Of a DNA stretch of 50,839 nucleotides, positions 2,382 through 39,252 are shown piece after piece. The DNA is from an uncultured Eubacteriales bacterium (lineage in GTDB: Bacteria > Bacillota > Clostridia > Christensenellales > Borkfalkiaceae): the NCBI GenBank assembly GCA_900545325.1, contig UQZE01000001.1:1-50839 (forward strand), read 5' to 3'. The position numbers and the translations under genes were made by a program. The number at the start of each line of letters is the position of its first letter. Within the stretch, counting starts at the first letter, position 1. A model generated the notes under the pieces. It was not told the DNA's origin and did not search any database. It saw only the letters and a list, made by a program, of their open reading frames with translations.

Positions 2382-2888
2382 TTAAACTAAATATTTTATC
2401 ATGCCCGCTATCGCGTATCCTTCCTTCCGCACGCGCTCTCCCGTAAAGGCAAAGCCGTTCTTTTTCCAAAACGCCGCGGCTTTTTCGCTCCCCTCTATCA
2501 CGCCGAGCTTTACTTTTAAATAGCCGCTCTCTTTGAAAAAGCGGAAAATTTCCCGCGCGAGCCGACTGCCTTCGCCCGCTCCCTGCCTCGTCTTATCGAG
2601 CATAAAAAGACCTATGTAGGCCGTTTCTCCGTCGGGATACCCCGCTATCAGGTCGGCCTCCGCGATCAGCCGCCCGCCGTCGAAAAAACCGATATAATAT
2701 TTGTCCTCATATCCCTTGCCCGGCGGCAGGGCGGCAAGGTTTTCCCGAAAGCTCTCCGCCGACGGGGACGAAAAGGTGAGCGCGAAAAAATCGGCGTTGC
2801 CGCTTTCGAGCGCGTATACCGCGGCGGCGTCTTTTTCGCTGAGCCGCCTTGCAAAAAAGCGCGGGGATATGTTTCCGATTTCCGTCAT
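2382..2888 (-). CDS. GNAT family N-acetyltransferase
   Basis: 168-aa ORF. RQGAGEGSRLAREI and AAAFWKKNGF match the acetyl-CoA binding motif A/B pattern. Its ATG overlaps the response-regulator stop (TGATG). Confidence 0.75.
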   Translation of the reverse strand: MTEIGNISPRFFARRLSEKDAAAVYALESGNADFFALTFSSPSAESFRENLAALPPGKGYEDKYYIGFFDGGRLIAEADLIAGYPDGETAYIGLFMLDKTRQGAGEGSRLAREIFRFFKESGYLKVKLGVIEGSEKAAAFWKKNGFAFTGERVRKEGYAIAGMIKYLV

Positions 2889-3535
2889 CAGTCGTTTTTC
2901 ATGGCGTTTTCAATGATCTCTTTCGCCTGCACGCGGTTGGCGGCGCCCAGCTTGATATAGATGCCGCTGATATAATTGCGCACCGTACCCTCGCTGATCT
3001 CCAGCGCCGTGGAGATCTGGCGGTTGTTGAAGTTTTCCGAAACCATCATCGCGATCTCCGTTTCCCTGTCGGAAAGCTGAAAGGCGCGTTTGAGCCGTAT
3101 TTCCTTGCCCGTAGTAACCATTTTCGCGGCCGCCGTGATCTTTTTTGCGATGTTGGTCGGCAGAATGAGCTCGCCGTTGTAAGCGTTCACCACGGCGTCT
3201 ATGAGGGAGGAGGCGTTGATATCCTTTAAGAGATAACCGCTCGCGCCGTAATTGATGGCGTCCAAAATATAGTCGCTGTCGTCGAAAGTCGTTAAAATCA
3301 CCACCTTGATGTCGGGATAGTTCTTTTTGATCTCGCGGGTGGCGATCACGCCGTTCATATTTGGCATGCGTATGTCCAAAAGCACCACGTCGGGTTTTTC
3401 TTCGGCAATCTTTTTCAAACAGTCTTCTCCGTCGGAGGCGAGCGCTATGACCTTTATTTTTTCCGAAGTTTCCAAAACGGTTCTGATGCCTTCGGCGAGT
3501 ATTTTCTGATCGTCCGCGATGATGACTTTAATCAT
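2888..3535 (-). CDS. response regulator, NarL/LuxR (DegU-like) family
   Basis: Receiver motifs IIADDQ, VVLLDIRMPNMNG and LLKD, plus a C-terminal LuxR HTH (LSDRETEIAMMV..ISEGTVRNYISGIY). Confidence 0.9.
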   Translation of the reverse strand: MIKVIIADDQKILAEGIRTVLETSEKIKVIALASDGEDCLKKIAEEKPDVVLLDIRMPNMNGVIATREIKKNYPDIKVVILTTFDDSDYILDAINYGASGYLLKDINASSLIDAVVNAYNGELILPTNIAKKITAAAKMVTTGKEIRLKRAFQLSDRETEIAMMVSENFNNRQISTALEISEGTVRNYISGIYIKLGAANRVQAKEIIENAMKND

Positions 3536-4739
3536 TGTTTTCTCCTTTATTGAGGTGCGCGGGCAGGATAAGCTTTATTTCCATGCCCTCGTCTTCTTCG
3601 GTATAAAACTCCGCGCTGCCGCCGAGCTTTTCGGCGCCCGCCCGCATGGAACCGAGCCCGTATCCCTCTTTGAAATCGTCCTTGCCCATGCCGTTGTCCG
3701 AAAGAAGAAAGCGTATTTCGCCGTCGGAAATCTTCAGTTCGAACAAAAACGCCGTCGCGCGGCCGTGGCGTATGCCGTTATTCAGCCCCTCTTTGAGCGA
3801 AGTATAGATGAAAAAGCCGATTTCCTCGTCTACGTCTATCTCCTCCGGATACTTCGCGCGGATCACGATATCCGTGCCCTCCATCGTTTCCGCAATGGCT
3901 TTATCGAGAGAAGCCACCAGGTTGAACGGCACGTATTCGCCCGAAAGCACGCGCACGGACTTTCTCAGTTCCTCGAGCGCGGTAACCGCCTGCATGTTGG
4001 CGGAAACGATTCTGCTCTTGGCCTCCTCGGGATCGGTGTCGAATTTGAGTTTCGCGGCCTCGGTCTGCACGATAATGGTCGTGATAGAATGGCCCGTGGT
4101 ATCGTGGATCTGCTTTGCTATGCGGTTGCGCTCCTCGAGCTGCGCCATTTCCTTCAGATTTTCATTGGCTTCCTGCAGTTTTTTTTCGCGTTCCGCCACT
4201 TCCTGCAGATTTTTTACCACTTCCTTGTTCTTTTTGATGATCACGTTCAGCATGTTCGCGATGGTAAACACCAGCGTGAAAACGATAAACTCGTTGATAA
4301 CGGTGGCGAGCAGTACGGAAAAGTCGAAAGCCGCGGGGGCGAAGATATAATCGCGCACGCCTATGCTGACGGCGTACGCCACAAAGGAAAGCCCGCCGAA
4401 CACGCAGTTCCCCTTAAGCGTGTTGTTCATGTAAAAATCCACGAGGATGAGGGAATAGAGCGTGGATAAAAACGGCATGGAAAACATCAGGGAATACACC
4501 AGCAGTATGACGTATTCCACCGCATAAAACACCGCTTTGACCGCGAGATTTTTTATAAAGAAAGAGTTTGCCTCGAATACGATAAACAGTCCGAGCGACA
4601 AAGAAAGGGCCACATACCACCGTTTTCCGCCCTGAACGGACAAAATGACAAGCAGAACGAAAAGGCAGATGCTGCAGCCGACCTTGATGATGTCGGCCAC
4701 GTCGTATTTCTTCAGCTTATAGAAATTTTTTATTTCCAT
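3528..4739 (-). CDS. multi-TM sensor histidine kinase (HisKA_3 type)
   Basis: ORF 3528..4868 trimmed to ATG 4739 (MEIKNFYKL). About 5-6 TM helices, an H-box (RIAKQIHDTTGHS) and an HATPase_c domain (GLNNGIRHG, DNGMG, GYGLGSM). The ATG overlaps the gltX TGA by 1 nt. Confidence 0.85.
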   Translation of the reverse strand: MEIKNFYKLKKYDVADIIKVGCSICLFVLLVILSVQGGKRWYVALSLSLGLFIVFEANSFFIKNLAVKAVFYAVEYVILLVYSLMFSMPFLSTLYSLILVDFYMNNTLKGNCVFGGLSFVAYAVSIGVRDYIFAPAAFDFSVLLATVINEFIVFTLVFTIANMLNVIIKKNKEVVKNLQEVAEREKKLQEANENLKEMAQLEERNRIAKQIHDTTGHSITTIIVQTEAAKLKFDTDPEEAKSRIVSANMQAVTALEELRKSVRVLSGEYVPFNLVASLDKAIAETMEGTDIVIRAKYPEEIDVDEEIGFFIYTSLKEGLNNGIRHGRATAFLFELKISDGEIRFLLSDNGMGKDDFKEGYGLGSMRAGAEKLGGSAEFYTEEDEGMEIKLILPAHLNKGENND

Positions 4740-6181
4740 CACATTCCGAGAAGCGCCATGGAATAATCGAGGCGTCTGAGCGTTTCCTCCTTGCCGAGCA
4801 GTTCCGCAAGCTCCATCACGCCGCCGGGGGTGGATTCCCTGCCGCTGATGGCGATTCTCACGCACCACAGCACCTGGCCGTTTTTCATGCCGAGGCGGGA
4901 TACGAGCGCCATCAATTCGTCGTGCAGGGTGTTGAAATCGAAAGCGCCGAGCGAGGCGAGCAGCTCTCTCGCCGCGGGCAGAACTTTTTTGGCGATCTCG
5001 GCGTCCGTCTTCATCTTTTTATGAGTGAAAAGAGCGACGTCGTATTCGCCGAATTCCTCCAAAAAGTCCACCTTTTCGGGGATTTCGGCAAAGGTTTCTA
5101 TCCTCGTTTTCAAAAGCGCCGCTATTTTTTTCAGATCGTATTTGCCGTATACCTTGCTCTTTTTAAAAAAGGGCAGGCCGCGCTCCACGAACTCTTCGTC
5201 GCCCATTTCCTTGATATATTCGCCCGAAAGCCAGCGCATTTTCGTTTCGTCGAAGATGGAGGGGGACTTGGATATGCCGTCCAGCGAAAAATGTTCCGTA
5301 AGCTCTTTCAGGCTCATTTTCTCTATATTTTCCTTGGGGCTCCAGCCGAGCAGGGCGATATAGTTGACGATGGCTTCTTTCACGAACCCTTTCTCCACGA
5401 AATCGGCGTAGCTCGCGTCCCCGTTGCGCTTGGAAAGCTTGTGCCGCTCGTCCTTCATGATGGGCGGCAGGTGAATATAAACGGGGCGCTCCCAGCCGAA
5501 CGCGTCGTACATCAGGTTGTATTTCGGCGTGGAGGAAAGGTATTCGCTGCCGCGTATGACGTGCGTGATGCCCATCAGGTGATCGTCCACCACGTTGGCG
5601 AAATTATACGTCGGCATGCCGTCGCTCTTGATCAGAATGCCGTCCTCCATATCCTTGAAATCGACGGATATATCGCCGTAAACGAGGTCATGGTAGCTCC
5701 CCGTTCCCTCTTCGGGAATGTTTTGGCGGATAACGTAGGGCGCGCCGCTTTTCAGCTTTTGTTCTATTTCCTCTTTCGAAAGGCGCAGGCAATGCTTGTC
5801 GTAACGGCAGTTGCCGTTTCCGTCGCGCAGCGACTCTATGCGTTCCTTATCGCAGAAACAATAATACGCCCCGCCGAGTTCCACCAGTTTTTTCGCGTAT
5901 TCGGTGTAGATGTCCTTTCTTTCGCTCTGCACGTAGGGGCCGTAACCGCCGCCGACGTCGGGACCTTCGTCGTAGACGATTCCGGAATCTTTCAGCGTGT
6001 CGTAAATGATTTCCACGCTGCCCTCCACATAGCGCTGCAGATCGGTGTCCTCTATCCGCAAAATAAAGTCCCCGCCGCGCTGTTTCGCATATAAAAACCC
6101 GTAAAGCGCCGTTCTCAGTCCGCCGATATGCAAATATCCCGTGGGACTGGGCGCGAATCTCGTTCTAACCTTGTCTGCCAT
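4739..6181 (-). CDS. gltX: glutamate--tRNA ligase
   Basis: RFAPSPTGYLHIGGLRTAL (HIGH motif), RIEDTDLQR and KLSKRNG (KMSKS motif). AAGGAG SD upstream. Confidence 0.95.
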   Translation of the reverse strand: MADKVRTRFAPSPTGYLHIGGLRTALYGFLYAKQRGGDFILRIEDTDLQRYVEGSVEIIYDTLKDSGIVYDEGPDVGGGYGPYVQSERKDIYTEYAKKLVELGGAYYCFCDKERIESLRDGNGNCRYDKHCLRLSKEEIEQKLKSGAPYVIRQNIPEEGTGSYHDLVYGDISVDFKDMEDGILIKSDGMPTYNFANVVDDHLMGITHVIRGSEYLSSTPKYNLMYDAFGWERPVYIHLPPIMKDERHKLSKRNGDASYADFVEKGFVKEAIVNYIALLGWSPKENIEKMSLKELTEHFSLDGISKSPSIFDETKMRWLSGEYIKEMGDEEFVERGLPFFKKSKVYGKYDLKKIAALLKTRIETFAEIPEKVDFLEEFGEYDVALFTHKKMKTDAEIAKKVLPAARELLASLGAFDFNTLHDELMALVSRLGMKNGQVLWCVRIAISGRESTPGGVMELAELLGKEETLRRLDYSMALLGM

Positions 6182-13143: not shown

Positions 13144-13383
13144 TTAATATACCCACTTGACAACGCTCTTTTTGTCGGGCACTTTGTCGAACCCGCCTTT
13201 TGAAAAAGGATTGCAACGCAAAATACGCCAGAAAGCCAAAACGCAGCCGACGAGAAAGCCCCTTTTTAAAATGGCTTCCAAAGCGTACTGCGAACAGGTC
13301 GGCGTATAGCGGCAATTGCTGCCAAGCTGCGGCGATATGCATTTCTGATAAAATTTAATGAGGAATATTCCGATCTTTTTCAT
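13144..13383 (-). CDS. yidD: membrane protein insertion efficiency factor YidD
   Basis: FYQKCISPQLGSNCRYTPTCSQYALEA..RILRCNPFSKGGFD is the YidD signature. Confidence 0.9.
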   Translation of the reverse strand: MKKIGIFLIKFYQKCISPQLGSNCRYTPTCSQYALEAILKRGFLVGCVLAFWRILRCNPFSKGGFDKVPDKKSVVKWVY

Positions 13384-13702
13384 CTTTGAAAAGTCCCGCT
13401 TTCTTCAGCATGTAGCCCATGCTACTCTTAAATTCGGCAAGGGAATATTCTTCCCTGACTTTCGGGATAAAAACAAAAAAGAAGCCGTCTTTTACGAAGG
13501 AAAAGTAACTTCTGAATGCTTCCCTCAAAAGACGTTTGATCCTGTTTCGCTTCACGCTGGAACCGTGTTTTTTTCCCACGGCATATCCTACTTTTTTCGT
13601 ATCGGCGGCAAAGTAAATCAACGTAAGATTGTTCGAAAACACTCTCGTTCCTTTTTTAAAAACCTTGTCAAAGTCCTCACTTCTTTTTAATCTGTATTCC
13701 AA
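13355..13702 (-). CDS. rnpA: ribonuclease P protein component
   Basis: LKRSEDFDKVFKKG.., GYAVGKKHGSSVKRNRIKRLLREAF. TTG start 18 nt after rpmH. Confidence 0.9.
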   Translation of the reverse strand: MEYRLKRSEDFDKVFKKGTRVFSNNLTLIYFAADTKKVGYAVGKKHGSSVKRNRIKRLLREAFRSYFSFVKDGFFFVFIPKVREEYSLAEFKSSMGYMLKKAGLFKDEKDRNIPH

Positions 13703-13720
13703 TTAAGTTGCCCCGAAATT

Positions 13721-13855
13721 TTAAGCGGAAAGCTTATGGCGGCCCTTATTGCGGCGTCTTTTCAAAACGTTCCTGCCGCTCTTCGTCTTCATTCTCTTTC
13801 TGAAACCGTGTACCTTGCTTCTCTGTCTTTTTTTGGGCTGATATGTTCTTTTCAT
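13721..13855 (-). CDS. rpmH: 50S ribosomal protein L34
   Basis: Not in the ORF track because it is only 44 aa. Manual translation gives [52 protein letters not shown]. Confidence 0.95.
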
Positions 13856-13893
13856 ATTATTCCGTCCTCTTTTTAGTAGTTTTGCGTTTTTTT

Positions 13894-13922
13894 ATTATAG
13901 TAAAGTTTTCTTTTTTTGTCAA
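13894..13922 (-). promoter_or_regulatory. consensus sigmaA promoter of rpmH operon
   Basis: On the minus strand: TTGACA (13922-13917), 17-nt spacer, TATAAT (13899-13894). It starts 5 nt after the dnaN stop. Confidence 0.75.
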
Positions 13923-13926
13923 TCTT

Positions 13927-15030
13927 TTAAGCGTTAATTCTCACGGGCAGCACCAAATACAGGTAATTATCCCCGCTGACGGGCTTGATTATGCAGGGCG
14001 CGATGGGGGAATTTAAGTAAATATTGATGAATTCGTCCTCCGCGATGCGCAGAAATTCCGTAATGTATTTAGAGTTGAAGGCGATCGTTATGTCCTTGCC
14101 CTCCATATTGACGTTCACCGGCTCGTTCACGTTGCCTATCTCGCTCTTGGAGATGACGTACATGAACTTTTCCTTGATGTCGAACTTGACGATGGAGATC
14201 CTGTCGCTCCGCGCGAGCACCGACGCTCTTTCCACGCTGGCGGCGAGCGTCTTTACGTTCACCCTTACGTTGGTTACGAACTCCGAAGGAATGATCTGCT
14301 TGTAATTGATAAATTCGCCCTCCAGCAGGCGGGAGATGAGCGTGGTGCCGTTCGTCTCCACCATGAGGGTGTTTTTATTGAGCGTTACTTTTAAATCCTC
14401 TTCGTCCTTATCGAGCAGCCTCACGATTTCCATCAGCGTGCGGGAAGGGATTATGGCCTTCATTTCCGCGGAAAAACCGCTCACGTCCGCGCGGGCGAGC
14501 GACAGCCTGAAGCCGTCCAGCGCGACCGCCGTAGCCCTGGCGTTGGCGATCTCGAAGAGTACGCCCTTTAATATGGGGCGGCTGTCGTCCTGCGAACAGG
14601 CGAAAACCGTCATGTTGGTCAGGCGTTTGAAATCGCTTTGTTTCATCACGAAGAAATTGTCGTTTATCTTTTTATCCGCGCGCGGGAACTCTTCGGCGGA
14701 AAAGCACTGCATCTCGCTTTCCGAATCCGAGTATTTTATTTTAAGCTGGTTTTCATCCGCCAGAGAAAGCTCCACCTGTTCGTTTTCCAGCTTTTTGACG
14801 AATTCCGCGAAGAACTTGCCCGTTACAACGGTTTCGCCCTCCATCAGGACTTCCGCCCTCACGTTTTTTTCGATGGTCAGTTCCGTATCGGTGGCAACGA
14901 GCGTAAGCGTATCGCCTTTCGCCTTGAGATATATTCCCTCCAGAACGGGATTCGTCTTTTTTACGCCGAGCGCTTTGCTTACTTTAAGCACCGCGTCCGA
15001 AAGGTCCAAACCGTCGCAAATGATCTTCAT
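13927..15030 (-). CDS. dnaN: DNA polymerase III beta sliding clamp
   Basis: 367 aa. N-terminus MKIICDGLDLSDAVLKVSKAL...NPVLEGIYLKAKGDTLTLVATDTE and typical length. GGAG SD. Confidence 0.95.
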   Translation of the reverse strand: MKIICDGLDLSDAVLKVSKALGVKKTNPVLEGIYLKAKGDTLTLVATDTELTIEKNVRAEVLMEGETVVTGKFFAEFVKKLENEQVELSLADENQLKIKYSDSESEMQCFSAEEFPRADKKINDNFFVMKQSDFKRLTNMTVFACSQDDSRPILKGVLFEIANARATAVALDGFRLSLARADVSGFSAEMKAIIPSRTLMEIVRLLDKDEEDLKVTLNKNTLMVETNGTTLISRLLEGEFINYKQIIPSEFVTNVRVNVKTLAASVERASVLARSDRISIVKFDIKEKFMYVISKSEIGNVNEPVNVNMEGKDITIAFNSKYITEFLRIAEDEFINIYLNSPIAPCIIKPVSGDNYLYLVLPVRINA

Positions 15031-15039
15031 AAATTTCTC

Positions 15040-15186
15040 CGTAAACTGTCGTTTCGATATTCTATTATATTATATATGATAGATTGAAAAAAATCAATAA
15101 AATGCGGCTCTTTTTTGTCCGTTTTTTAAGGAAAGGATATTATTTCTTTTTTTAAATTTAAATCAGTAGTCATTATTATAAGGCGG
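15040..15186. other. AT-rich tract (candidate DNA unwinding region) ending in a GGCGG block
   Basis: Long A/T runs (TATTATATTATATATGATAGATTGAAAAAAATCAATAAAAT; TTTTTTTAAATTTAAATCAGTAGTCATTATTATAA) lie between the dnaN start and the DnaA-box array. Confidence 0.4.
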
Positions 15187-15194
15187 TGTATATT

Positions 15195-15382
15195 TGTGGA
15201 AAGCGCCGTTTCCGCTATGTATAGACTGACGTTTTAAAGTGGATAAACTGTGATTTGTTTTGTGGACAAGCTGTGAAAAGCTTGTGGAAGAACGGCGCTT
15301 TCGGTTCTGAAAGGCAGAGGCGGGGCGGGCGCATTTTTTCCCGCGTCAGAAAACGGGTAAGTTTTCCGCACGCTGTGGAAAA
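15195..15382 (+). promoter_or_regulatory. array of five same-orientation DnaA-box-like 9-mers (candidate oriC)
   Basis: TGTGGAAAG 15195, AGTGGATAA 15238, TGTGGACAA 15261, TGTGGAAGA 15283, TGTGGAAAA 15374. Each has 1-2 mismatches to TGTGGATAA. Confidence 0.6.
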
Positions 15383-15406
15383 GAAATGTGAATATCTTTG
15401 TTTTCG

Positions 15407-19501: not shown

Positions 19502-19521
19502 TTATCCACAATTTATCCACA
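19502..19521 (+). promoter_or_regulatory. two tandem perfect DnaA boxes
   Basis: TTATCCACA at 19502-19510 and at 19513-19521, same orientation, 2 nt apart. Confidence 0.8.
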
Positions 19522-28687: not shown

Positions 28688-28904
28688 TGAAATACCTGCC
28701 CTTATGCCCCAAATGCCTTTTCTTTCCTGCCGAAATCGACAGTAATTTTAAAAACTTGCCGCAATTTTATTGCAAAGTGCGGAAATTTAATATATAATAG
28801 ATTAGCGTAAATCATTATAAGCATTAAAATTATATGCGGCGCGGCGGGGGAAATATGCCGTTCCGCGGTGATTTTTTGATATGCTTGACAGGAGTAAGAT
28901 CAAC

Positions 28905-30749
28905 ATGGTGAAAAAATTGCTCAAAACAATAGCGGTGGCGGCGGTAACGGCGGCTCTGGCGGTAAGCGCGGTCGCGTGCGGCGGCGCGTGGAAGTCGAAC
29001 GTGACGCTGACAAGCCCCGGTCCGCTCGTCAGAAACGGCGGATTCGTCGCGGAAACGGAAAATTACGTTTACTTTATCAACGGCGAGGAAACGTATACCG
29101 AAAACAACAAGCTCGGCACGCCCGTCAAAGGTTCGCTGATGGTTGCGGAAAAGTCCAAGCTTGCCGACGGCGGCGCGGAAGCGCAGACGGTCGTTCCCAA
29201 GCTCTTTGCGGCGGGGGATCTTACCGCGGGCGTATATATCTACGGCGACAAGGTTTACTACGCCACGCCGTCCGTGAAAAAGAACACCAGCGGCGCCGCG
29301 GCAACCGACTATCTGGACGTATGTTCTTCCACGCTCGACGGAAAAACGCACACCACCTATACCACCGTCAAGGGCAACGCCACGAATTACAGATTTGTAC
29401 AGGTCGGCGAGAGCGTGCATTTCGTCTACTATAACAGCGAGGACACCGAACTTATAGATTACAACGTTTCGTCCAAGACCGAAAAAGTCATTGAAGACGA
29501 AGTTTCCGCGGTCAAGTTCGTCGCGAACGAAGCGCTTTCGGGCGCGACCGTGCTGTATACCGTCGTTCCCAAGAACGAAAGCACCAACCAGAGCGAAACC
29601 TACAACGTGCTTTACGGCTATATGCCTTCGAACGACGACGCGTCGAACAAGGGCACGGAGATCGCAAGCGGCAAGGGCAAAGAAAACGCCGAAGTCGGCC
29701 AGCGCGGGCCCGATTCCACCTATGCGGTAACGCTTGCGACGGGCGAATATGTATTCTTTACCAAGACGACGACGCTCGACAGCGAAAAGGTGGAAACCTA
29801 CGGCGCGAAAGTGAGCGATTTGATGTCGTCCAAGACGGAAAACGCCGTCAAATACGAAGACAATACCGATAAAATAGCCGATACCACCCTTTTCACCGAC
29901 CTTAGAACGGCGTATGCGGTGGACGGCGATTACGTGGTGAAATATTCCGACAGCGAGGGAAAAGCCCTTAAAAACAAAGAAACGGTCGCAAAAGTCGGCG
30001 TGAGCAAACTGCTGTTCCTCAACGGGAACGATCTTTATTACATCAGTTCTTCGAGCGAACTTGCGAAAGTGGACGTTTCCGACGCGGAAGCCGAACAGAT
30101 CAGAGTTTCCGAAGGCGCGGTCGTTACCGACTGGTTCGCGCCCGTTGCGGCGGGCGGCTACGTGTTCTATCTCGACGCGCAGACGGACGGGCTGAGCTAC
30201 GTGAATTACGCGGCGCTCGACGGCACCGTCGTCGCGGAGGATACGGACGACGACGAAGAGGACGACCTTTGGTATATCAAAAACACCTATTTCCTCGGCG
30301 AGATGAAAGACGCCGATAAGGTAACGGTGGTTTCTTCTAAGATCAGCGCGCTTTCCACGGACGTAACGCAGATCACTTACGACGCCGAGGAAAAGAAGTT
30401 CGAGCAGGAAGAACAGATCGCGGAAGCGCGCGCGGCGTATAACGGCCTGAGCGACAAGCTGAAGAAAGAAATTTCCAAGGACGAGCTTAAGATACTCGAA
30501 AAGTACGAAAACTATTTGGACGTCAGCAAGGAGCTGAACGAATTGCTCGTATACGGCGGACCGACGGGCGTGGATCACGTTGCCGTTACCGCTGAGAACA
30601 AGGACGAGTTACAGGCGATTATCGACAGCGTAAACGCCAGAATGGAAGAACTCGAGTACACCTCCGCGGATAAGGGAAATCTCCTTAAAAACGGAATGTG
30701 GGCTTTACAGGAAGTGCAGAAGGCCATCGACGAACTCAACGAGGCTTAA
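28905..30749 (+). CDS. lipoprotein with repeated beta-propeller-like (DUF5050-type) blades
   Basis: ORF trimmed to ATG 28905, after CAGGAG. Signal peptide with Cys (ALAVSAVACGG). Recurrent YVYFIN / VYYATP / HFVYYN / YVFFTK / LYYISS / YVFYLD blade-like motifs. Confidence 0.6.
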   Translation: MVKKLLKTIAVAAVTAALAVSAVACGGAWKSNVTLTSPGPLVRNGGFVAETENYVYFINGEETYTENNKLGTPVKGSLMVAEKSKLADGGAEAQTVVPKLFAAGDLTAGVYIYGDKVYYATPSVKKNTSGAAATDYLDVCSSTLDGKTHTTYTTVKGNATNYRFVQVGESVHFVYYNSEDTELIDYNVSSKTEKVIEDEVSAVKFVANEALSGATVLYTVVPKNESTNQSETYNVLYGYMPSNDDASNKGTEIASGKGKENAEVGQRGPDSTYAVTLATGEYVFFTKTTTLDSEKVETYGAKVSDLMSSKTENAVKYEDNTDKIADTTLFTDLRTAYAVDGDYVVKYSDSEGKALKNKETVAKVGVSKLLFLNGNDLYYISSSSELAKVDVSDAEAEQIRVSEGAVVTDWFAPVAAGGYVFYLDAQTDGLSYVNYAALDGTVVAEDTDDDEEDDLWYIKNTYFLGEMKDADKVTVVSSKISALSTDVTQITYDAEEKKFEQEEQIAEARAAYNGLSDKLKKEISKDELKILEKYENYLDVSKELNELLVYGGPTGVDHVAVTAENKDELQAIIDSVNARMEELEYTSADKGNLLKNGMWALQEVQKAIDELNEA

Positions 30750-30978: not shown

Positions 30979-31144
30979 TTCGACAAGAATTTTAAAAAAC
31001 GTCAGTTTTTGACTATTTATTTTTCCGGTATACAAAACGCCAAAAAAGGATATAATTTAACATATTAAACGGTTTATGCGCCAAAGTTCGTTCCCTTTTG
31101 ATCTTTAAGGCAAAAAAAGTAGAAAAAAGCAAGAAATTTCGACA
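30979..31144 (-). promoter_or_regulatory. two 0A-box heptamers upstream of spo0A
   Basis: TGTCGAA on the minus strand at 30979-30985 and 31138-31144. About six copies of a 7-mer are expected by chance in this window, so the support is modest. Confidence 0.35.
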
Positions 31145-31248
31145 AATATTGTTCAAAAATGCTTTTATTTTTCGGTAAAATGGTGTAAAATAGAATACGG
31201 TTATTTCGCGAAAGAATAATCAAATAAATTTTAAGGAGGATAGTTTCA

Positions 31249-32013
31249 TTGGAGAAGAAATCCATCGTTATCATTCAGGATAACGAAAAGAGGAACATGG
31301 AACTGCAAAAAATCATTGCCGCAACTTCCGATCTGGAAGTCGTCGGCATCGCGACAGACGGAATCGGCGGATATAAGCTGATCGAAGAAAAGAAACCCGA
31401 TTTCGTCGTTTCCGAACTGCTGCTCGCCGGCTTCGACGGGTTCTGTATTCTCGACAAACTGAGATCTTCGGGGCTGGAAACAAAGGTCATACTCGTGAGC
31501 GCGTTCGTCCGCGAAGACATCGTCGCAAAAGCTCTTTCCAAAGGCGCGGCGTTTTTTATCGCGAAACCTTACGCTTACGAAGTGCTTATCGAGCGCATTC
31601 GCGACCTCGACGAAACCAGGGCGGCGCAGAAGGCGCGCGTTTACGGCGAGGGCGTCAGGCGCAACACGCTCGACGAAAAGATAAGCAATATTTTTATAAA
31701 CGTAGGTATACCTCCTCACATCAAAGGGTATGCTTATCTGCGGGAAGGCGTTAAGATGGCCGTGGACAACCCCGACATCATCAACAACATCACCAAAAAA
31801 CTCTATCCCATGATCGGCGAAAGATATTCCACCAGCGCCAGCAAAGTGGAAAGGGCGATCCGCCACGCGATAGAAGTCGCCTGGAACAGAGGGCGCATCG
31901 AAAGCATAAACAATATTTTGGGCGTGAGGGCTTATATCGGCGCCGAAAAACCTACCAACGGGGAATTTATCGCCCTCGTCGCGGATAAAATGCTTTTGGA
32001 AAAAGTGCAGTAA
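31249..32013 (+). CDS. spo0A: sporulation master regulator Spo0A (atypical receiver: Glu at the acceptor site)
   Basis: TTG start 9 nt after AGGAGG. Effector-domain signatures GIPPHIKGYAYLREGV, SASKVERAIRHAIEVAWNRG and KPTNGEFIALVADKM. Confidence 0.85.
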   Translation: MEKKSIVIIQDNEKRNMELQKIIAATSDLEVVGIATDGIGGYKLIEEKKPDFVVSELLLAGFDGFCILDKLRSSGLETKVILVSAFVREDIVAKALSKGAAFFIAKPYAYEVLIERIRDLDETRAAQKARVYGEGVRRNTLDEKISNIFINVGIPPHIKGYAYLREGVKMAVDNPDIINNITKKLYPMIGERYSTSASKVERAIRHAIEVAWNRGRIESINNILGVRAYIGAEKPTNGEFIALVADKMLLEKVQ

Positions 32014-32075: not shown

Positions 32076-32265
32076 CTTATGCGATACTGAAAAGATGAGC
32101 CGAAAGCCGAAAAAATCGCTGAAAAGTAACTTTTTTTCGCGGCGGCACAATACAATAAGTATACGGACGTATTCCCGATGAAAACGGCGGCTCGATTTTT
32201 GGGGGAGTTAAACCGAGGGAAAGGTTCCGGCAAACAAGGAAAAAACGTAGTAAGAGGATTTGGAT

Positions 32266-32772
32266 ATGGCGGGAGATTATATTAAATGTCCGAGATGCGA
32301 ACTCAATTACATTCATAAGAACCAGGGGTATTGCGATGTATGCAAGGCGGAGCTGAAATTAGGTCCGCAGCTGGTTTTCGCCGTAGAAGAAGATGATGAG
32401 GAACCCATGGAACTTTGCCCCATCTGCAAGCAGAATTACATCAAGGAAGGGGAAGAGATGTGCGCCAAGTGCCGTGAGGAAATGGACTTCAAAAAAGACG
32501 AGATAGACCTCGATAAGGACGAGGAGTGGAAAAATTATCTCGAAGAAGACGCCGACGACTGCGAAGACGACGAGGAGATGCTCTCGCTTTCACGTCTGGC
32601 GGAAGAAGAGGCTGACGAACTCTTCGACGACGAAGAAGACGAAGAAGCGGACGACGTCGGTCCCGACGAACCCGACGACTTTGAAATCCCCGAGATCGAC
32701 GAAAGAGATTTCGAGGAAGAGGACGAAGACGAGGAAGAAGAGGACGAGGACGACGAGTTCGACGATAAATGA
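32266..32772 (+). CDS. double zinc-ribbon protein with polyacidic C-terminal tail
   Basis: ATG 32266 lies 7 nt after AAGAGGA. CPRC..CDVC and CPIC..CAKC pairs, followed by about 95 residues that are mostly Asp/Glu. Confidence 0.6.
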   Translation: MAGDYIKCPRCELNYIHKNQGYCDVCKAELKLGPQLVFAVEEDDEEPMELCPICKQNYIKEGEEMCAKCREEMDFKKDEIDLDKDEEWKNYLEEDADDCEDDEEMLSLSRLAEEEADELFDDEEDEEADDVGPDEPDDFEIPEIDERDFEEEDEDEEEEDEDDEFDDK

Positions 32773-33787: not shown

Positions 33788-35308
33788 ATGTTTATTGAAC
33801 CCAAATACGAAGAAATCGTTTATAAAAGCGAAATAAAAAAACTTTTAAGCGAGACCAAGATAGAATGTAAAACCGCGCTTCCGGCGGAAGAAGTCGTCAA
33901 AGTGCTTTCCGTCTCGGCGCAGGCCGTCCTCACGGGGGAAGAGGTAACGGCGGATCAATTCCGTTACAGCGGAAAGGCGCTGTTCTGCGTGGCTTACCTC
34001 GCGGCGGACGGCTCGGTGAAAAAGGCCGAGTGCGGCACGGAATTTTCCAACTCCGTCAAAACCGATTTCGCGGAAAGCGTGTACAGCGAAACTTCGCTTT
34101 CGGTCAAAAAAGCTTCGGCGGAAATAGGCGGCGGCATTCTGGTCGTTCATTCCGTGGTGGGTGCGGAAACGTGCTTTTATACCGACAGGCGCGCAAAGGC
34201 GCTCACGGGCGGCGAAAACCTCATTCTGAAAAAATCCAACGTCAAGATTGTGCGCGAAACCAAGGTGAACAAAGCGGTGTTCCCCCTCGAAGAGGAATTC
34301 GAAGTTCCCTATGCGGTGGGCGACGTCGTTCTGCATACCGCCTGCGCCATGGTAACGGCCTCGCAATGCGGCGTGGGAACGCTCATTTGCGACGGCGAAC
34401 TGATTTTGTCGGTCTGCATGTTGCAAAAAATCGAAAACAGTGATATATTAAAAGAAACGAGATGTCTGCCTTTCCGCTACGAACTCGAAGCCGAGGAAGT
34501 TTCCCCGTCCTTCGCGGCGCAGTGCAAAGCCTCTTTGAAAAATCTCAGCCTCAACATCGCGGTGGACGAAAACACGGGCAAGAGCACCGTTGCCGTTTCT
34601 GCGGACGTGGAAGTGGGCGGCTGCTATTTCCAGGAAAACGAAACGGAATGTTGTTCGGATTGCTATTCCCCGCTCTGCGAGGTTACGCTCAGCCGCAGCG
34701 AATGTTCTTCCTCCTGCCCCGCGGGCGAAAAGACTTTTGAAAAGCGCGTGGGCGGCAGGGGCGCGTTTGCGGGCGCGCTGCCCGCGGGCACGCGCCTGAT
34801 GTGCACCGCGAACGAAAAGGTTACGCTCACTTCGGTGCGCGCCGAAAACGACGTAATCGCCGCGGAGGGCGTGCTGGAGGCGGTCGCGCTGTGCAAGGAC
34901 ATCGAGGGCAAGGTGTTTTCCGCCGAACTCGAAGCGCCCTTCCGCACTTCGCTCGAATACGACGTGGGCGACAACCGCTATTCGGTGGAAGCCGTGGCTT
35001 GCGAGAGCTCGGCGCGCATCGTATCCCCCGAAAGTTTCGATCTGGACGCGCTCGTCAAATTCAGGGTAACGGCGACGAGGACGGCAGGCGTGAGCGTGGT
35101 AGGCGAAGTTGAGGAGGGCGAGGAAAAAAAGCCCGCGGAGTCGGCGATCAGCGTGTATATCCCCATTGAAGGAGAAGAGCTTTGGGACGTGGCGAAACGC
35201 CTCAATTCCTGTCCCGACGCCATCGCCTCGATGAACGCCGACCTCTCTTACCCGCTGAGCGGAAAGGAACGGATCGTAATTTACAGACAGGAAAAGAAAG
35301 AGTATTGA
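33788..35308 (+). CDS. DUF3794 (SPOCS)-type sporulation protein with C-terminal LysM
   Basis: 506 aa. The C-terminal ISVYIPIEGEELWDVAKRLNSCPDAIASMNADL is LysM-like. The N-terminal repeat architecture resembles DUF3794 proteins found next to ispE/veg in Clostridia. Confidence 0.6.
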   Translation: MFIEPKYEEIVYKSEIKKLLSETKIECKTALPAEEVVKVLSVSAQAVLTGEEVTADQFRYSGKALFCVAYLAADGSVKKAECGTEFSNSVKTDFAESVYSETSLSVKKASAEIGGGILVVHSVVGAETCFYTDRRAKALTGGENLILKKSNVKIVRETKVNKAVFPLEEEFEVPYAVGDVVLHTACAMVTASQCGVGTLICDGELILSVCMLQKIENSDILKETRCLPFRYELEAEEVSPSFAAQCKASLKNLSLNIAVDENTGKSTVAVSADVEVGGCYFQENETECCSDCYSPLCEVTLSRSECSSSCPAGEKTFEKRVGGRGAFAGALPAGTRLMCTANEKVTLTSVRAENDVIAAEGVLEAVALCKDIEGKVFSAELEAPFRTSLEYDVGDNRYSVEAVACESSARIVSPESFDLDALVKFRVTATRTAGVSVVGEVEEGEEKKPAESAISVYIPIEGEELWDVAKRLNSCPDAIASMNADLSYPLSGKERIVIYRQEKKEY

Positions 35309-36202: not shown

Positions 36203-36231
36203 GTATAAATGAAAGTATTTGCGGCAATAAA
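36203..36231 (+). promoter_or_regulatory. candidate forespore (sigmaF/G-type) promoter of spoIIR
   Basis: GTATA, 15-nt spacer, GGCAATAAA. Close to the GYATA-15-GGnnAnAnT sigmaF pattern. Confidence 0.35.
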
Positions 36232-36259
36232 CGTACTGTCAGAGAACGGAGGAAAGAAA

Positions 36260-36784
36260 ATGAAAAAATTCTGCATAATCTTGATGATATTAACCATAAT
36301 AATCATAGGCTCGGCTGCGTTTATAAAGAATAACGAAACGCATACCGAATATCTGAGGATACATATCCGCGCGGATTCCAACGAGGCCGAAGCGCAGGCA
36401 GTCAAGTACGAAGTAAAGGGGGAAGTCGTGAAAATGCTCACCCCCTACCTTGCGGAATGCCGCACGAAGGCGCAGGCGGAGCAAACGCTCAAAAACCTGC
36501 TCGGGGAGATCGAGAAAACGGCGGACGCAGTCCTGGCGGCGAACGGTTTTTCCTATCGCAGCAAGGCGAGCGTGCGGGAAGAGGAATTCCCCACGCGCGT
36601 CTACGAAGACCTCACCCTTGACGCGGGCTACTACGACGCGCTGATCCTCGAACTCGGTTCGGGGAAAGGCGACAACTGGTGGTGCGTTGTGTACCCTCCC
36701 TTGTGTTTCACGGGCGGGGAGTGCGGATACGTTTACAAAAGCAAGATTCTCGAAATCATCGAGAGTTTCAAAAAGAAAAACTAA
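36260..36784 (+). CDS. spoIIR: stage II sporulation protein R
   Basis: ORF trimmed to MKKF after GGAGG. LRIHIRADSNEAEAQAVKYEV and GDNWWCVVYPPLCF are SpoIIR signatures. Confidence 0.9.
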   Translation: MKKFCIILMILTIIIIGSAAFIKNNETHTEYLRIHIRADSNEAEAQAVKYEVKGEVVKMLTPYLAECRTKAQAEQTLKNLLGEIEKTADAVLAANGFSYRSKASVREEEFPTRVYEDLTLDAGYYDALILELGSGKGDNWWCVVYPPLCFTGGECGYVYKSKILEIIESFKKKN

Positions 36785-36794
36785 CGGAGGAAAG

Positions 36795-37487
36795 ATGAAG
36801 AAACTGGTTAAAACCGCCGCCGTGCTCATGATCATATTCACGCTCGGATTCTGTTTGACCGGCGTGATCGGGCACGTGCCCGCGATCACGGCGAGCGCGG
36901 CGGTGTTGCAGCAGGGCAGCCGCGGCAGCGACGTTACCACCCTGCAAAGGAAACTGAAGAACTGGGGCTATTACAGCGGCTCCGTGGACGGAATATTCGG
37001 CTCCCAGACGAGGGAAGCCGTCAGATACTTCCAGAGAAAGAACGGCCTCGTCGTCGACGGGATCGTCGGCAAAAAGACGCTTGCCGCGCTCGGCATGAGC
37101 CTCGGCGGGTCTTCGGGCTCCACGAGCGGATATTCCAATTCGGATATTTCCCTGCTCGCGCGGCTCATTTACGGCGAAGCGCGCGGCGAAAGCTATACGG
37201 GACAGGTCGCGGTCGGCGCGGTTGTGCTCAACAGGGTGAGGAGCTCTTCCTTCCCGAACACCATCGCGGGCGTCATTTATCAGCCGTACGCGTTTACCGC
37301 CGTTTCGGACGGGCAGATCAATTTAACGCCCAACGCCACGGCGCGCAAAGCGGCCATCGCCGCCATGAACGGCTGGGATCCCAGCTACGGCGCGATTTAT
37401 TACTACAACCCTTCCACGGCGACGAGTTCGTGGATATTCTCAAGGCAGACCACGGTGGTCATAGGCGACCACGTGTTCGCGATCTAA
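36795..37487 (+). CDS. sleB: spore cortex-lytic enzyme SleB
   Basis: ATG 36795 after GGAGG. PG_binding_1 segment (LQRKLKNWGYYSGSVDGIFGSQTREAVRYFQ) and Hydrolase_2 segment (LLARLIYGEARGE..VLNRV..YQPYAFT). Confidence 0.9.
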   Translation: MKKLVKTAAVLMIIFTLGFCLTGVIGHVPAITASAAVLQQGSRGSDVTTLQRKLKNWGYYSGSVDGIFGSQTREAVRYFQRKNGLVVDGIVGKKTLAALGMSLGGSSGSTSGYSNSDISLLARLIYGEARGESYTGQVAVGAVVLNRVRSSSFPNTIAGVIYQPYAFTAVSDGQINLTPNATARKAAIAAMNGWDPSYGAIYYYNPSTATSSWIFSRQTTVVIGDHVFAI

Positions 37488-37500
37488 CGGAGGAAGAACA

Positions 37501-39252
37501 ATGGCAGAAAAGAAAAACAGCGCGCTCGTGAAGGCCGAAAAGGCGACGAGCGGCGACCCCGTCGAAAAACAGACGGGCGAACGCGAAGAAACGATACGCG
37601 CGATCAGGGAAAAGCAGAAAGCGGACGAACGCATCGCCCGCGCCAGAGCGAAAAAGACCAAGGTGGAGCGCCGCGCCGCGATAAAGGCGGAGGAAATGCG
37701 CAGAAAACAGGCGCAGAAAGCGCGCGCCAAGGCCGAACGCGAAACGATAAAGAGAAACGCCCTCGCCGAGCGCGAACGCAAAAAGCTCGAAGAAGAGAGA
37801 AAGCGTGCGGCCGTCAAAGCCGAACGCGCGGCAAAGGCCGAGGAAGAGCGCAGGCAACGCGAGGCTGCCAAGGCCGAAAAACGGCGGGAAAGGCAGATGA
37901 AACAGCGCTCTAAAAACAAGAAGAAAAAGGAAAACAAGGGCTACGGCGGCTGGATGGCGGCGGTCATCTCGCTCGGCGTTACGGTGCTGGTGCTCTCTTC
38001 CGTGCTGGCAATGAACATCTTCATGCCCACGGCCTCGGACAAGCAGCTCGCGGCGATGTACGAAAAGTCCTATTACGATACCGTAACCTACGTAGGCAAT
38101 CTCGACAGCAACCTTTCTAAGGCGCTTGCGACCAAGGACGGCGAGGCGCTGCAGAAATATATGGTGGAACTCGCGGTGCAGAGCGAGCTGGCGGAAAACG
38201 ACATCAACCGCCTGCCCCTCGAGGACGACGCGAAATTTTATACGACCAAGCTTATAAACCAGATCGGCGATTTTGCGAAATACCTCAATAAAAAGCTTAT
38301 CGACGGAGAAGAACTGGCCGAAAGCGACCTCGCGTCGCTCAAACAGCTTTACGAAGCGAACAAGCAGTTCAAGGAAAGCCTCAGCCGCATCACCTATAAC
38401 ATGGGCGAGGGCTACGACTTCAAAAAGCTCGAAAAGGACGGCAACGAACTTCTGAGCGGCATGGAGGAACTGCAGAACATGAGCGCGGAATATCCCGAAC
38501 TCATCTACGACGGTCCGTTTTCCGACGGCCAGGCCAAAAAGGAAGTGAAGGGCCTTTCGGGCGGTGAAGTGAGCGTGGAAGAAGCGCGCGACGTCTTTGT
38601 AAAGGTTTTCAACGAATACGGTATAAACGAAATAGAGGACGCGGGCGAAACGAGCGGGCTTTTCGACTGCTACAATTTCACGGCAATGTCGGACGGCGCG
38701 CAGATCTTTGCGCAAATCAGCAAAAAAGGCGGGCACGTGGTGCTTTTCGATTACTTCAAGGATTGCTCCGCAGTCAACTACGACGGAGAGGACCTGATCC
38801 CCGTAGGACAGGCGTTTTTGGAGAACCTCGGGCTCGATAACATGAAATGCGTGTGGGCGAGCAGCTCGCAGGCGGTAACGTCGCTTAATTTCGCATATGA
38901 GCAGGACGGCGTGATCGTGTACAGCGACCTCATCAAGCTCACCGTATGTCAGGAAACGGGCAAGGTTACGGGCATGGAGGCGGCGCCCTATTATATGAAC
39001 CATACGGAAAGGGATATTCCCGCGCCCGCGATCTCTTCGCAGACGGCGGCGGGCAGGGTATCTTCTTCGCTGGACATCGTGGGCACGCGCATGGCGTATA
39101 TCCCCAAGAGCGAAAACACAGAATGTCTGACCTATGAATTCAAGGCCGAAAAGGACGGCGACACGTATTACGTGTATATCGACGCCTTGACGGGCAGGCA
39201 GGTGGAAATGTTCAAGGTGATCGTTACCGATGACGGCACCATGCTGCTGTAA
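37501..39252 (+). CDS. ypeB: germination protein YpeB with a long charged N-terminal extension
   Basis: Immediately follows sleB. One TM helix at about residues 150-172, then a YpeB-like body (AAMYEKSYYDTV.., PepSY-like C-terminus YYVYIDALTGRQVEMF). Confidence 0.85.
   Translation: MAEKKNSALVKAEKATSGDPVEKQTGEREETIRAIREKQKADERIARARAKKTKVERRAAIKAEEMRRKQAQKARAKAERETIKRNALAERERKKLEEERKRAAVKAERAAKAEEERRQREAAKAEKRRERQMKQRSKNKKKKENKGYGGWMAAVISLGVTVLVLSSVLAMNIFMPTASDKQLAAMYEKSYYDTVTYVGNLDSNLSKALATKDGEALQKYMVELAVQSELAENDINRLPLEDDAKFYTTKLINQIGDFAKYLNKKLIDGEELAESDLASLKQLYEANKQFKESLSRITYNMGEGYDFKKLEKDGNELLSGMEELQNMSAEYPELIYDGPFSDGQAKKEVKGLSGGEVSVEEARDVFVKVFNEYGINEIEDAGETSGLFDCYNFTAMSDGAQIFAQISKKGGHVVLFDYFKDCSAVNYDGEDLIPVGQAFLENLGLDNMKCVWASSSQAVTSLNFAYEQDGVIVYSDLIKLTVCQETGKVTGMEAAPYYMNHTERDIPAPAISSQTAAGRVSSSLDIVGTRMAYIPKSENTECLTYEFKAEKDGDTYYVYIDALTGRQVEMFKVIVTDDGTMLL

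Follow-up and report, generated by a model that had tools for sequence, protein, structure and literature searches.

A conserved Spo0A with glutamate at the phospho-acceptor position and a degenerate acidic pocket in uncultured Christensenellales

According to a 2024 review, all endospore formers activate Spo0A through phosphorylation of a conserved aspartate (PMC11210211). How, then, might Spo0A be controlled in a lineage in which this aspartate is replaced? The question is raised by a contig from an uncultured Eubacteriales bacterium (Christensenellales, Borkfalkiaceae; assembly GCA_900545325.1, contig UQZE01000001.1), of which positions 1 to 50,839 were analysed. This whole stretch of 50,839 nucleotides is referred to as the window. 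Its spo0A gene encodes glutamate where Bacillus subtilis Spo0A has Asp56. An earlier note, made from the letters of the window without database searches, had drawn attention to this residue. In this study, the identity of the gene, the state of its acceptor site, and the state of the same residues in relatives were determined, and the explanations for them were weighed.

Identity of the gene and its acceptor site

The product of the open reading frame (ORF) was compared with protein families and solved structures. TIGR02875 (spore_0_A, an NCBIfam equivalog) matched it with 247.1 bits against a cut-off of 200 (E = 1.8e-73), and the match spanned profile positions 2-259 of 262; the runner-up NCBIfam family, NarL, scored 58 bits. 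Pfam identified a Response_reg domain (E = 1.4e-16) and a Spo0A_C domain (E = 3.8e-37), whose limits are given in Table 1. The best matches among solved structures were the effector domains 1fc3 and 1lq1 (E ~1e-36) and the receiver domains 9phz and 1qmp/1dz3. Full-length identity to B. subtilis Spo0A was 40%. The window protein is assigned to Spo0A because TIGR02875 scored above its cut-off, the architecture is a receiver (REC) domain with Spo0A_C, and the structure matches are to Spo0A; as judged from its sequence, it is a Spo0A orthologue. The earlier note had called the effector domain clearly Spo0A, and both the TIGR02875 score and the Spo0A_C match bear this out.

The receiver was aligned with that of B. 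subtilis Spo0A (PDB 9phz_E) using HMMER. The alignment contained no gaps over residues 1-77 and placed 'fvvsElllagfdg' opposite 'vlvlDiimphldg', with Glu56 facing Asp56 and Gln10 facing Asp10. An identical register was obtained in MAFFT alignments with 120, 84, and 125 homologues. A register shift that would give a true Asp at the acceptor was rejected, since the nearest aspartates, D51 and D63, pair with D51 and D63 of B. subtilis and all four alignments agree. The profile alignments thus confirmed what had been read by eye, namely Glu at Asp56, Gln at Asp10, Ser at Leu55, and retention of Asp11, of the Thr/Ser position (S84), and of the pocket Lys (K106). The reported exchange of a conserved Pro for Ala also held, although the position concerned is P60 of B. 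subtilis and not P59. Ser and Lys are numbered S84 and K106 because the window protein is 2 residues shorter than B. subtilis Spo0A past residue 79.

Canonical Spo0A, as in B. subtilis, G. stearothermophilus, and C. difficile, has Asp56 and Asp10 together with L55 and M59-P60-H61, whereas the window Spo0A has Glu and Gln, with S55 and L59-A60-G61 next to the pocket. Two features of a canonical receiver were therefore not found: the acceptor Asp is Glu56, and the Mg2+-binding acid pair is Gln10-Asp11. The switch residues S84, F103 (the Tyr/Phe switch residue), and K106-P107 are all present. An aspartate-less receiver (ALR) is a recognisable REC domain whose phosphorylatable Asp is replaced. The window Spo0A fits this definition, with Glu at the acceptor of a REC domain, and an ALR form is the best reading of its receiver.

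The window also contains an internal control. A NarL-type response regulator has D8, D9, D53, T81, and K103, which is the complete canonical DD...D...T...K pocket, and it adjoins a HisKA_3 kinase, the sole kinase in the window. As the pocket of this regulator is intact and a kinase lies next to it, the ordinary two-component proteins of the organism are canonical.

A protein identical to the window Spo0A (P0001) was found on 271 contigs, of up to 552 kb, in 529 blocks of the collection; its NCBI label is 'MAG: sporulation transcription factor Spo0A [Eubacteriales bacterium]'. Q10-D11-E56 is kept in all full-length variants of the 90% cluster of P0001. In relatives with 71-91% identity, the Glu56 codon is GAA or GAG (GAG in L005).

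The start codon of the gene is TTG, and the homologous start codon in relatives is ATG. Some public gene calls (P0271, P0278) begin Spo0A at Met17 (window position 31297), which gives 238 aa; gene callers chose this start because the true one is TTG. The Met17 start is ruled out by the Shine-Dalgarno sequence, the conserved N-terminus, and the ATG starts in relatives. The records truncated at Met17 lack beta1 and positions 10 and 11, and the change in the pocket is therefore hidden from annotation-based surveys.

Pocket variation and constraint in relatives

The locus set consisted of the best 80 loci from a scan of one genome per GTDB species, the closest one listed being 71% identical. Tallies for the clade were made on 197 (~200) homologues from Christensenellaceae-like metagenome-assembled genomes (MAGs) of gut and rumen. 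Nearly all of the best 80 loci came from MAGs labelled Christensenellaceae, Christensenella, Clostridia, or Clostridiales, and their hosts were human, ruminant, horse, and reindeer, with other guts also represented. The 120 best homologues were all full-length Spo0A from uncultured Clostridia; 116 of them had Gln10, and position 56 was Glu in 84, Gly in 30, and Asp in 6. In the best 80 loci, position 10 was never Asp (Q66, A9, E5), position 11 was mostly Asp (D58, E13, G8, A3, N2, P1), and position 56 varied (D42, E30, G12, N1); Ser/Thr86 and Lys108, in B. subtilis numbering, were invariant. The clade tallies gave the same picture. Gln10 was present in 176 of 197 sequences (~89%), again with no Asp at this position. 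Position 11 was D146, E26, G11, A6, and N6, and position 56 was E108, D46, G42, and N1. The Ser84 position was Ser in 184 and Thr in 12, and Lys106-Pro107 was found in all 197.

The history of these positions was examined on a neighbour-joining tree made without the pocket columns. Parsimony counted ~30 changes for residue 56, compared with 23 for residue 11 and 11 for residue 10. Groups at the base of the tree, among them 'Acidiphilium sp. CAG:727'-type genomes, have Q/A-D-D at positions 10, 11, and 56. A check that does not depend on the tree showed an exchange of E and G within a cluster of at least 90% identity, and of D and E within a cluster of at least 85% identity. Within the lineage of the window itself, taken as relatives of at least 67% identity, Q-D-E is uniform. 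In some other lineages, which have Q-G-D, Q-A-E, or Q-P-E, the second acid is gone; the Q-G-D lineages keep D56 yet lack D11. The second acid is the principal Mg2+ ligand of receiver domains (D13 in CheY). These results indicate that decay of the pocket is common to the whole clade and extends beyond one genome, and the first description of it as a feature of a single genome has to be widened.

The same variation bears on the role of the glutamate itself. The earlier note had stressed Glu56 as a possible phosphomimic. This emphasis did not survive the survey, as sister lineages have Gly or Asp and the residue flips between proteins that are at least 85-90% identical. A carboxylate at position 56 is unlikely to be required because Gly or Asp replaces Glu in close relatives, and Glu56 would be a tolerated state, unlikely to be an essential phosphomimic.

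The rest of the protein is constrained. In the Glu56 lineage, the ratio of non-synonymous to synonymous substitution (dN/dS), taken from pairs with unsaturated dS of 0.5-1.3, was 0.08-0.12 for REC and 0.03-0.04 for the effector domain. The REC positions that are invariant or nearly so in ~200 sequences are G33, D37, G38, P50, G61, D63, G64, S84, G99, A100, Y102, K106, P107, L113, and R116, among which G38, P50, G64, G99, K106-P107, L113, and R116 are fully invariant. The recognition helix SKVERAIRHAIEVAW was unchanged in 80 aligned homologues. AlphaFold2 predicted a confident (beta-alpha)5 receiver, with a predicted local distance difference test score (pLDDT) above 90 through residue 90. In Foldseek comparisons, this receiver superposed on the phosphorylated Spo0A N-domain 1qmp with a root-mean-square deviation of 1.0 A over 117 columns (TM 0.91), and the C-domain matched 1lq1 and 1fc3 with TM 0.86-0.93. 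These results show that the REC domain, the switch residues, and the DNA-binding domain are under purifying selection and are not decaying.

A wider sample was composed of the 125 full-length Spo0A-like 50%-identity cluster representatives (among P0121-P0269) nearest to the query, a sample that is biased to the query's relatives. Asp56 was present in 95 of these and absent from 30 (E12, G7, N4, S3, other 4), the replacing residues being E, G, N, S, Q, A, T, Y, and R. Position 11 was non-acidic in 50 of the 125 (~40%). Lys108 was also lost in a few cluster representatives. Decay of the Spo0A pocket is not rare in metagenomic Clostridia and appears to be widespread in uncultured Clostridia outside the clade. 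Representatives with canonical and degenerate pockets differed elsewhere in the receiver as well. Met at position 59 was found in 45 of 53 canonical-pocket representatives, vs Leu in 51 of 67 degenerate-pocket ones, and Pro at position 60 in 48 of 53 vs 29 of 67. The hydrophobic fraction at position 15 of alpha1 was 0.94 vs 0.72, and A87 and F110 were relaxed in the degenerate-pocket group. The positions that differ are adjacent to the pocket or belong to the docking surface for kinases and phosphotransferases.

Control of Spo0A and alternative explanations

Two perfect 0A boxes (TGTCGAA) lie within the 500-bp region 5' of spo0A in the window. Over the whole window, enrichment of 0A boxes was not significant (11 found vs 8.5 expected). 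Across the loci, perfect boxes occurred at 2.57/kb in the 350 bp upstream of spo0A vs 0.12/kb elsewhere, an enrichment of ~20-40-fold that is specific to that region. At least one perfect box within 250 bp was found in 16 of 24 Glu56 loci, 27 of 40 Asp56 loci, and 6 of 11 Gly56 loci, where ~0.02 was expected from shuffles. The main box has a conserved orientation, 95-145 nt 5' of the start codon; after it come a conserved TTGTTCAAAAAT-like motif and a (T)GTAAAAT -10-like element. A sigma-70 promoter scan gave weak candidates only, including a TAAAAT that neighbours the candidate -10 hexamer, and a SigH-type promoter (AGGA-N14-17-GAAT) was not found upstream of spo0A in the window or in 18 relatives. 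Directly 3' of the conserved 0A box lies an AT-rich motif, ATATTGTTCAAAAAT, which reads TTGTACAAAA/TTGAACAAAA in the relatives L005-L040; its sequence is in part palindromic, and another regulator may bind there. An 0A box at the promoter of spo0A itself and the recognition helix, both marks of the Spo0A family, are thus present. These results are consistent with binding of Spo0A to its own promoter whatever residue 56 is, and such binding may be activating.

The genes around spo0A also bear on its role. The spo0A synteny block is kept in at least 50 species-level genomes, and in Gly56 lineages with enough flanking sequence the spoIIR, sleB, and ypeB ORFs are intact. Because these three genes are intact beside spo0A, including in Gly56 lineages, Spo0A most likely still governs entry into sporulation in the clade.

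With moderate confidence, we propose that the window Spo0A works without phosphorylation of an Asp and retains its role in sporulation. Phosphorylation-independent control is the best inference because the change is fixed and conserved. In the ancestor of the clade, Spo0A would have ceased to depend on phosphotransfer to Asp56, with loss of D10 as the shared change, and later the acceptor and D11 would have been free to vary in the narrow set D, E, G, and N. Residue 56 would no longer take a phosphoryl group from a histidine kinase or phosphorelay, and the receiver would be kept for another role, most plausibly as a structural or dimerisation module or to position the effector domain. As there would be no covalent switch, the likely control variables are the concentration of Spo0A and its partners. 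Activity may be set mainly by the amount of Spo0A, with the 0A boxes suggesting autoregulation, and a protein partner possibly contributes. Control by expression or by a partner had been put forward in the earlier note; the conserved 0A boxes fit the former, and a Zn-ribbon protein encoded 3' of spo0A is a candidate for the latter. A broader proposal can be made only tentatively: this family- to order-level clade, which keeps sporulation and germination genes, might sporulate through a Spo0A that is never phosphorylated, a concentration-driven autoregulated switch being used instead, possibly aided by the Zn-ribbon protein.

Several points weigh against control without phosphorylation. The pocket of the window Spo0A is only partly degraded, as D11, S84, F103, and K106 are kept, and binding of Mg2+ by D11 and E56 is conceivable. 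About one quarter of the clade keeps D56 with D11 (Q-D-D and A-D-D lineages); Gln or Ala at the first position alone is no proof that phosphorylation was lost, and therefore phosphorylation could persist in these lineages. It could also have been lost only recently in the window lineage. The route to the active state is unexplained, because D-to-E alone fails to activate B. subtilis Spo0A (Green et al. 1991, as cited in PMC4395418). Furthermore, cultured Christensenella is described as non-spore-forming.

This last point leads to an explanation that we consider unlikely, in which Spo0A was repurposed for stationary-phase or colonisation regulation in a lineage that lacks sporulation or is losing it, the pocket decaying as the kinases are gone. 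Cultured Catabacter is likewise described as non-spore-forming, SpoMAG calls most Christensenellales MAGs non-sporulating, and residue 56 has drifted between D, E, and G as if the acceptor were unconstrained. However, spoIIR, sleB, ypeB, the SipL-like gene, and yyaC are intact and keep their synteny with spo0A throughout the clade, Gly56 lineages included. Although SpoIIR (138.7 bits vs a cut-off of 151.9) and YpeB (269.8 vs 303.6) score slightly under their NCBIfam cut-offs, SleB (298.6 vs 236.5) and YyaC are above their equivalog cut-offs. Some Christensenellales MAGs are predicted spore-formers, and although Christensenellaceae isolates are described as non-spore-forming, ethanol pre-treatment enriched them and their annotation suggests that they 'might be spore-forming' (PMC11085954). 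Repurposing, even if true, would leave Spo0A phosphorylation-independent.

Phosphorylation at another site, either at Ser55 by analogy with CheY D57N or by a Ser/Thr kinase, is quite improbable. D11, S84, and K106 are kept, and the Leu55 of B. subtilis is replaced by Ser in the window and by Thr or Ser in ~70% of the clade. Appleby and Bourret reportedly found in 1999 that CheY D57N is phosphorylated on Ser56. In other Spo0A representatives, however, Thr55 also stands beside canonical D-D-D pockets, and the Q-G-D, Q-A-E, and Q-P-E lineages are without the Mg2+ ligand for kinase-catalysed transfer in the pocket. Thr55 is not linked to the loss of D56, because M, L, I, or V takes its place in ~30% of the clade, with Glu as well as Gly forms among them. 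No association between Thr/Ser55 and the loss of D56 was found among the clade and cluster representatives, and its role as an alternative acceptor tied to that loss was rejected.

It is very improbable that the window Spo0A is a specialised paralogue, an option raised in the earlier note, with a canonical phosphorylatable Spo0A elsewhere in the genome doing the switching. The visible genome is only 50.8 kb, and the collection scan covers the best 80 loci, which leaves room for a second gene. Nevertheless, the protein exceeds the equivalog cut-off for Spo0A itself, and no part of it is more strongly conserved than its effector domain, which is at the low end of the dN/dS values given above (0.03). 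Conservation extends to the synteny block and to the 0A boxes 5' of the gene, as would be expected of an ancestral locus. A tblastn search within the window found one copy of spo0A and no second, each of the 84 loci read has a single spo0A, and no genome occurs twice among the best 80 species-level matches. Spo0A is normally single-copy in Firmicutes.

The chance that the change is an artefact of sequencing, assembly, or alignment is practically nil, since the same sequence came from hundreds of independent assemblies, relatives share the state with different synonymous codons, and four independent alignments agree; a base-call or assembly error, against which the co-varying substitutions had already been held to argue, is ruled out by the 271 contigs bearing P0001, the population variants, and the use of both Glu codons in relatives.

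The phosphorylation-independent Spo0A proposed here can be set beside known systems. It shares with canonical Spo0A the two-domain architecture and the recognition helix, the 0A-box sequence upstream of its own gene, and the sporulation genes nearby. It differs in its setting, as canonical spo0A has spoIVB upstream, whereas the window gene sits in a rplM-rpsI ... veg-ispE-spoIIR block near the putative oriC. No SpoIVB (Peptidase_S55) gene was found 5' of spo0A or in the scanned ORFs of the window, in agreement with the earlier observation that the gene lies outside the usual spoIVB-spo0A context. Engineered constitutive Spo0A forms (the sad67 deletion, and D56 changes with other mutations; Green et al. 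1991, as presented in PMC4395418) are also phosphorylation-independent, but they are laboratory alleles, whereas the window Spo0A is a natural, conserved, multi-substitution state.

Like the ALR or pseudo-receivers ChxR (Glu), plant PRR/TOC1 (Glu), RitR (Asn), FrzS (Ala), and HP1043, the window Spo0A keeps the REC fold with the acceptor Asp replaced. Both retain the pocket Lys and the Thr/Ser-Tyr/Phe coupling residues, and activity is presumed to be phosphorylation-independent. Glu is the commonest replacement of the acceptor in ALRs (26%), and Gly accounts for 11% (PMC4395418). Typical ALRs keep acidic residue 1 (65%) and lose residue 2 (PMC4395418), whereas the window Spo0A loses D10 and the clade mostly keeps D11. 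Unlike these ALRs, it has the Spo0A_C output domain of a developmental master regulator, and its acceptor toggles among D, E, and G within one orthologous clade.

Natural Asp-less Spo0A has been counted before. The ALR census of Maule et al. 2015 lists 7 ALRs of 391 Pfam-26 proteins under 'Response_reg~Spo0A_C' in its S6 Table (PMC4395418). That entry is a bare count without organisms, clade, context, or function, and the MAGs of the present clade were mostly sequenced later. Apart from this count, no account of an Asp-less or phosphorylation-independent Spo0A in nature was found in the full-text literature, a search in which most subscription journals were not included. The clade-wide Asp-less Spo0A appears to be new, this one incidental count being the only prior record found. 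Where sporulation in Christensenellales has been surveyed with MAGs, the marker was the mere presence of spo0A, and the acceptor was not considered (PMC11536998, PMC12536801).

If the proposal is true, the rule that all endospore formers rely on Asp phosphorylation (PMC11210211) would not hold in the window lineage, and the His-Asp phosphotransfer step, held to be universal for endospore formers, would be replaced in the clade. The clade, which is large and consists of abundant gut bacteria, offers a natural experiment on roles of the Spo0A receiver beyond phosphate acceptance. Models of sporulation initiation that centre on kinases, and strategies that target kinases to block sporulation, may not apply to it. 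MAG sporulation predictors take the presence of spo0A as their first criterion, and the plain label 'sporulation transcription factor Spo0A' in annotation pipelines conceals the mechanistic difference.

Features and neighbouring genes

Table 1. Coordinates of spo0A, its pocket codons, its upstream elements, and other genes described in the window.
Feature	Position	Strand	Remarks
spo0A coding sequence	31249-32013	+	254 aa, TTG start, stop within range; from the ORF list and hidden Markov models; identical to P0001
Shine-Dalgarno sequence AAGGAGG	31233-31239	+	9 nt 5' of the TTG start
Receiver (REC) domain, degenerate acidic pocket	31264-31602	+	residues 6-118, PF00072
Spo0A_C effector domain with recognition helix SKVERAIRHAIEVAW	31681-31989	+	residues 145-247, PF08769
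Gln10 (CAG), first acidic pocket position	31276-31278	+	B. subtilis D10
Asp11 (GAT), second acidic pocket residue	31279-31281	+	kept
Glu56 (GAA), phospho-acceptor position	31414-31416	+	B. subtilis D56
Ser84 (AGC), Thr/Ser switch position	31498-31500	+	B. subtilis T86
Lys106-Pro107 (AAA CCT), pocket Lys with cis-Pro	31564-31569	+	B. subtilis K108-P109
Perfect 0A box (TGTCGAA)	31138-31144	-	111 nt 5' of the start codon; position and orientation conserved in the clade
Second perfect 0A box	30979-30985	-	spo0A upstream intergenic region
AT-rich motif	31146-31160		
Candidate -10 hexamer TAAAAT	31186-31191	+	TG in front; (T)GTAAAAT recurs at the same distance in relatives
Double Zn-ribbon protein with long acidic tail	32260-32772	+	168-170 aa, uncharacterised; found 3' of spo0A in at least 53 of 80 loci, mostly as the next gene
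spoIIR-sleB-ypeB, sporulation and germination	36209-39252	+	synteny in 26-28 loci, including Gly56 lineages
NarL-type response regulator	2888-3535	-	
HisKA_3 kinase	3528-4868	-	
622-aa protein	28881-30749	+	
506-aa SipL-like protein	33788-35308	+	
dnaN	13927-15030	-	

The gene order in the window is ecfA-ecfA-ecfT-truA-rplM-rpsI, a 117-aa unknown protein, the 622-aa lipoprotein-like unknown, spo0A, the Zn-ribbon gene, veg, a helix-turn-helix gene, the SipL-like gene, and ispE-spoIIR-sleB-ypeB. In the best 80 loci, the Zn-ribbon gene was found in 53, veg in 49, the SipL-like gene in 37, ispE in 34, spoIIR and sleB in 28 each, and ypeB in 26; these counts are minima because many contigs end earlier.

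The Zn-ribbon protein has two CxxC...CxxC ribbons (CPRCxLNY...YCDVCKAEL and LCPxCxxNY...MCxxC) with conserved Cys motifs, the conserved stretches DKDEEWKNYLD and EEMLSL, and a strongly acidic tail. In the protein collection, 744 homologues were found, all of them unnamed; Pfam gave only sub-threshold DZR matches, and NCBIfam gave none. Its genomic linkage makes it a candidate partner of Spo0A. The 622-aa protein, which carries a lipoprotein-type signal peptide (…AVSAVAC-GG), is encoded immediately 5' of spo0A in 36 of 80 loci and had no match in Pfam or NCBIfam. The sole recognisable feature of the 506-aa protein is an N-terminal SipL/SPOCS domain (PF12673, 44 bits). It lies between veg and ispE in 37 of 80 loci and is a candidate coat-morphogenesis protein (SipL/SpoVID-like).

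The window also contains jag, yidC/spoIIIJ, rnpA, rpmH, dnaN, rsmG, and a cluster of DnaA boxes, and spo0A probably lies ~16 kb from oriC. The cumulative GC-skew minimum near 12-14 kb of the window marks a probable replication-origin region (13144-15400, 15610, 19502-19521). dnaN is directly upstream of rpmH-rnpA-yidD-yidC-jag, with rsmG on the other side and no dnaA beside it. Among the DnaA boxes are three with one mismatch (15238-15382), one without any mismatch (15610), and a perfect tandem pair (19502-19521). Over the whole window, there were 20 DnaA boxes with at most one mismatch vs 5.9 expected.

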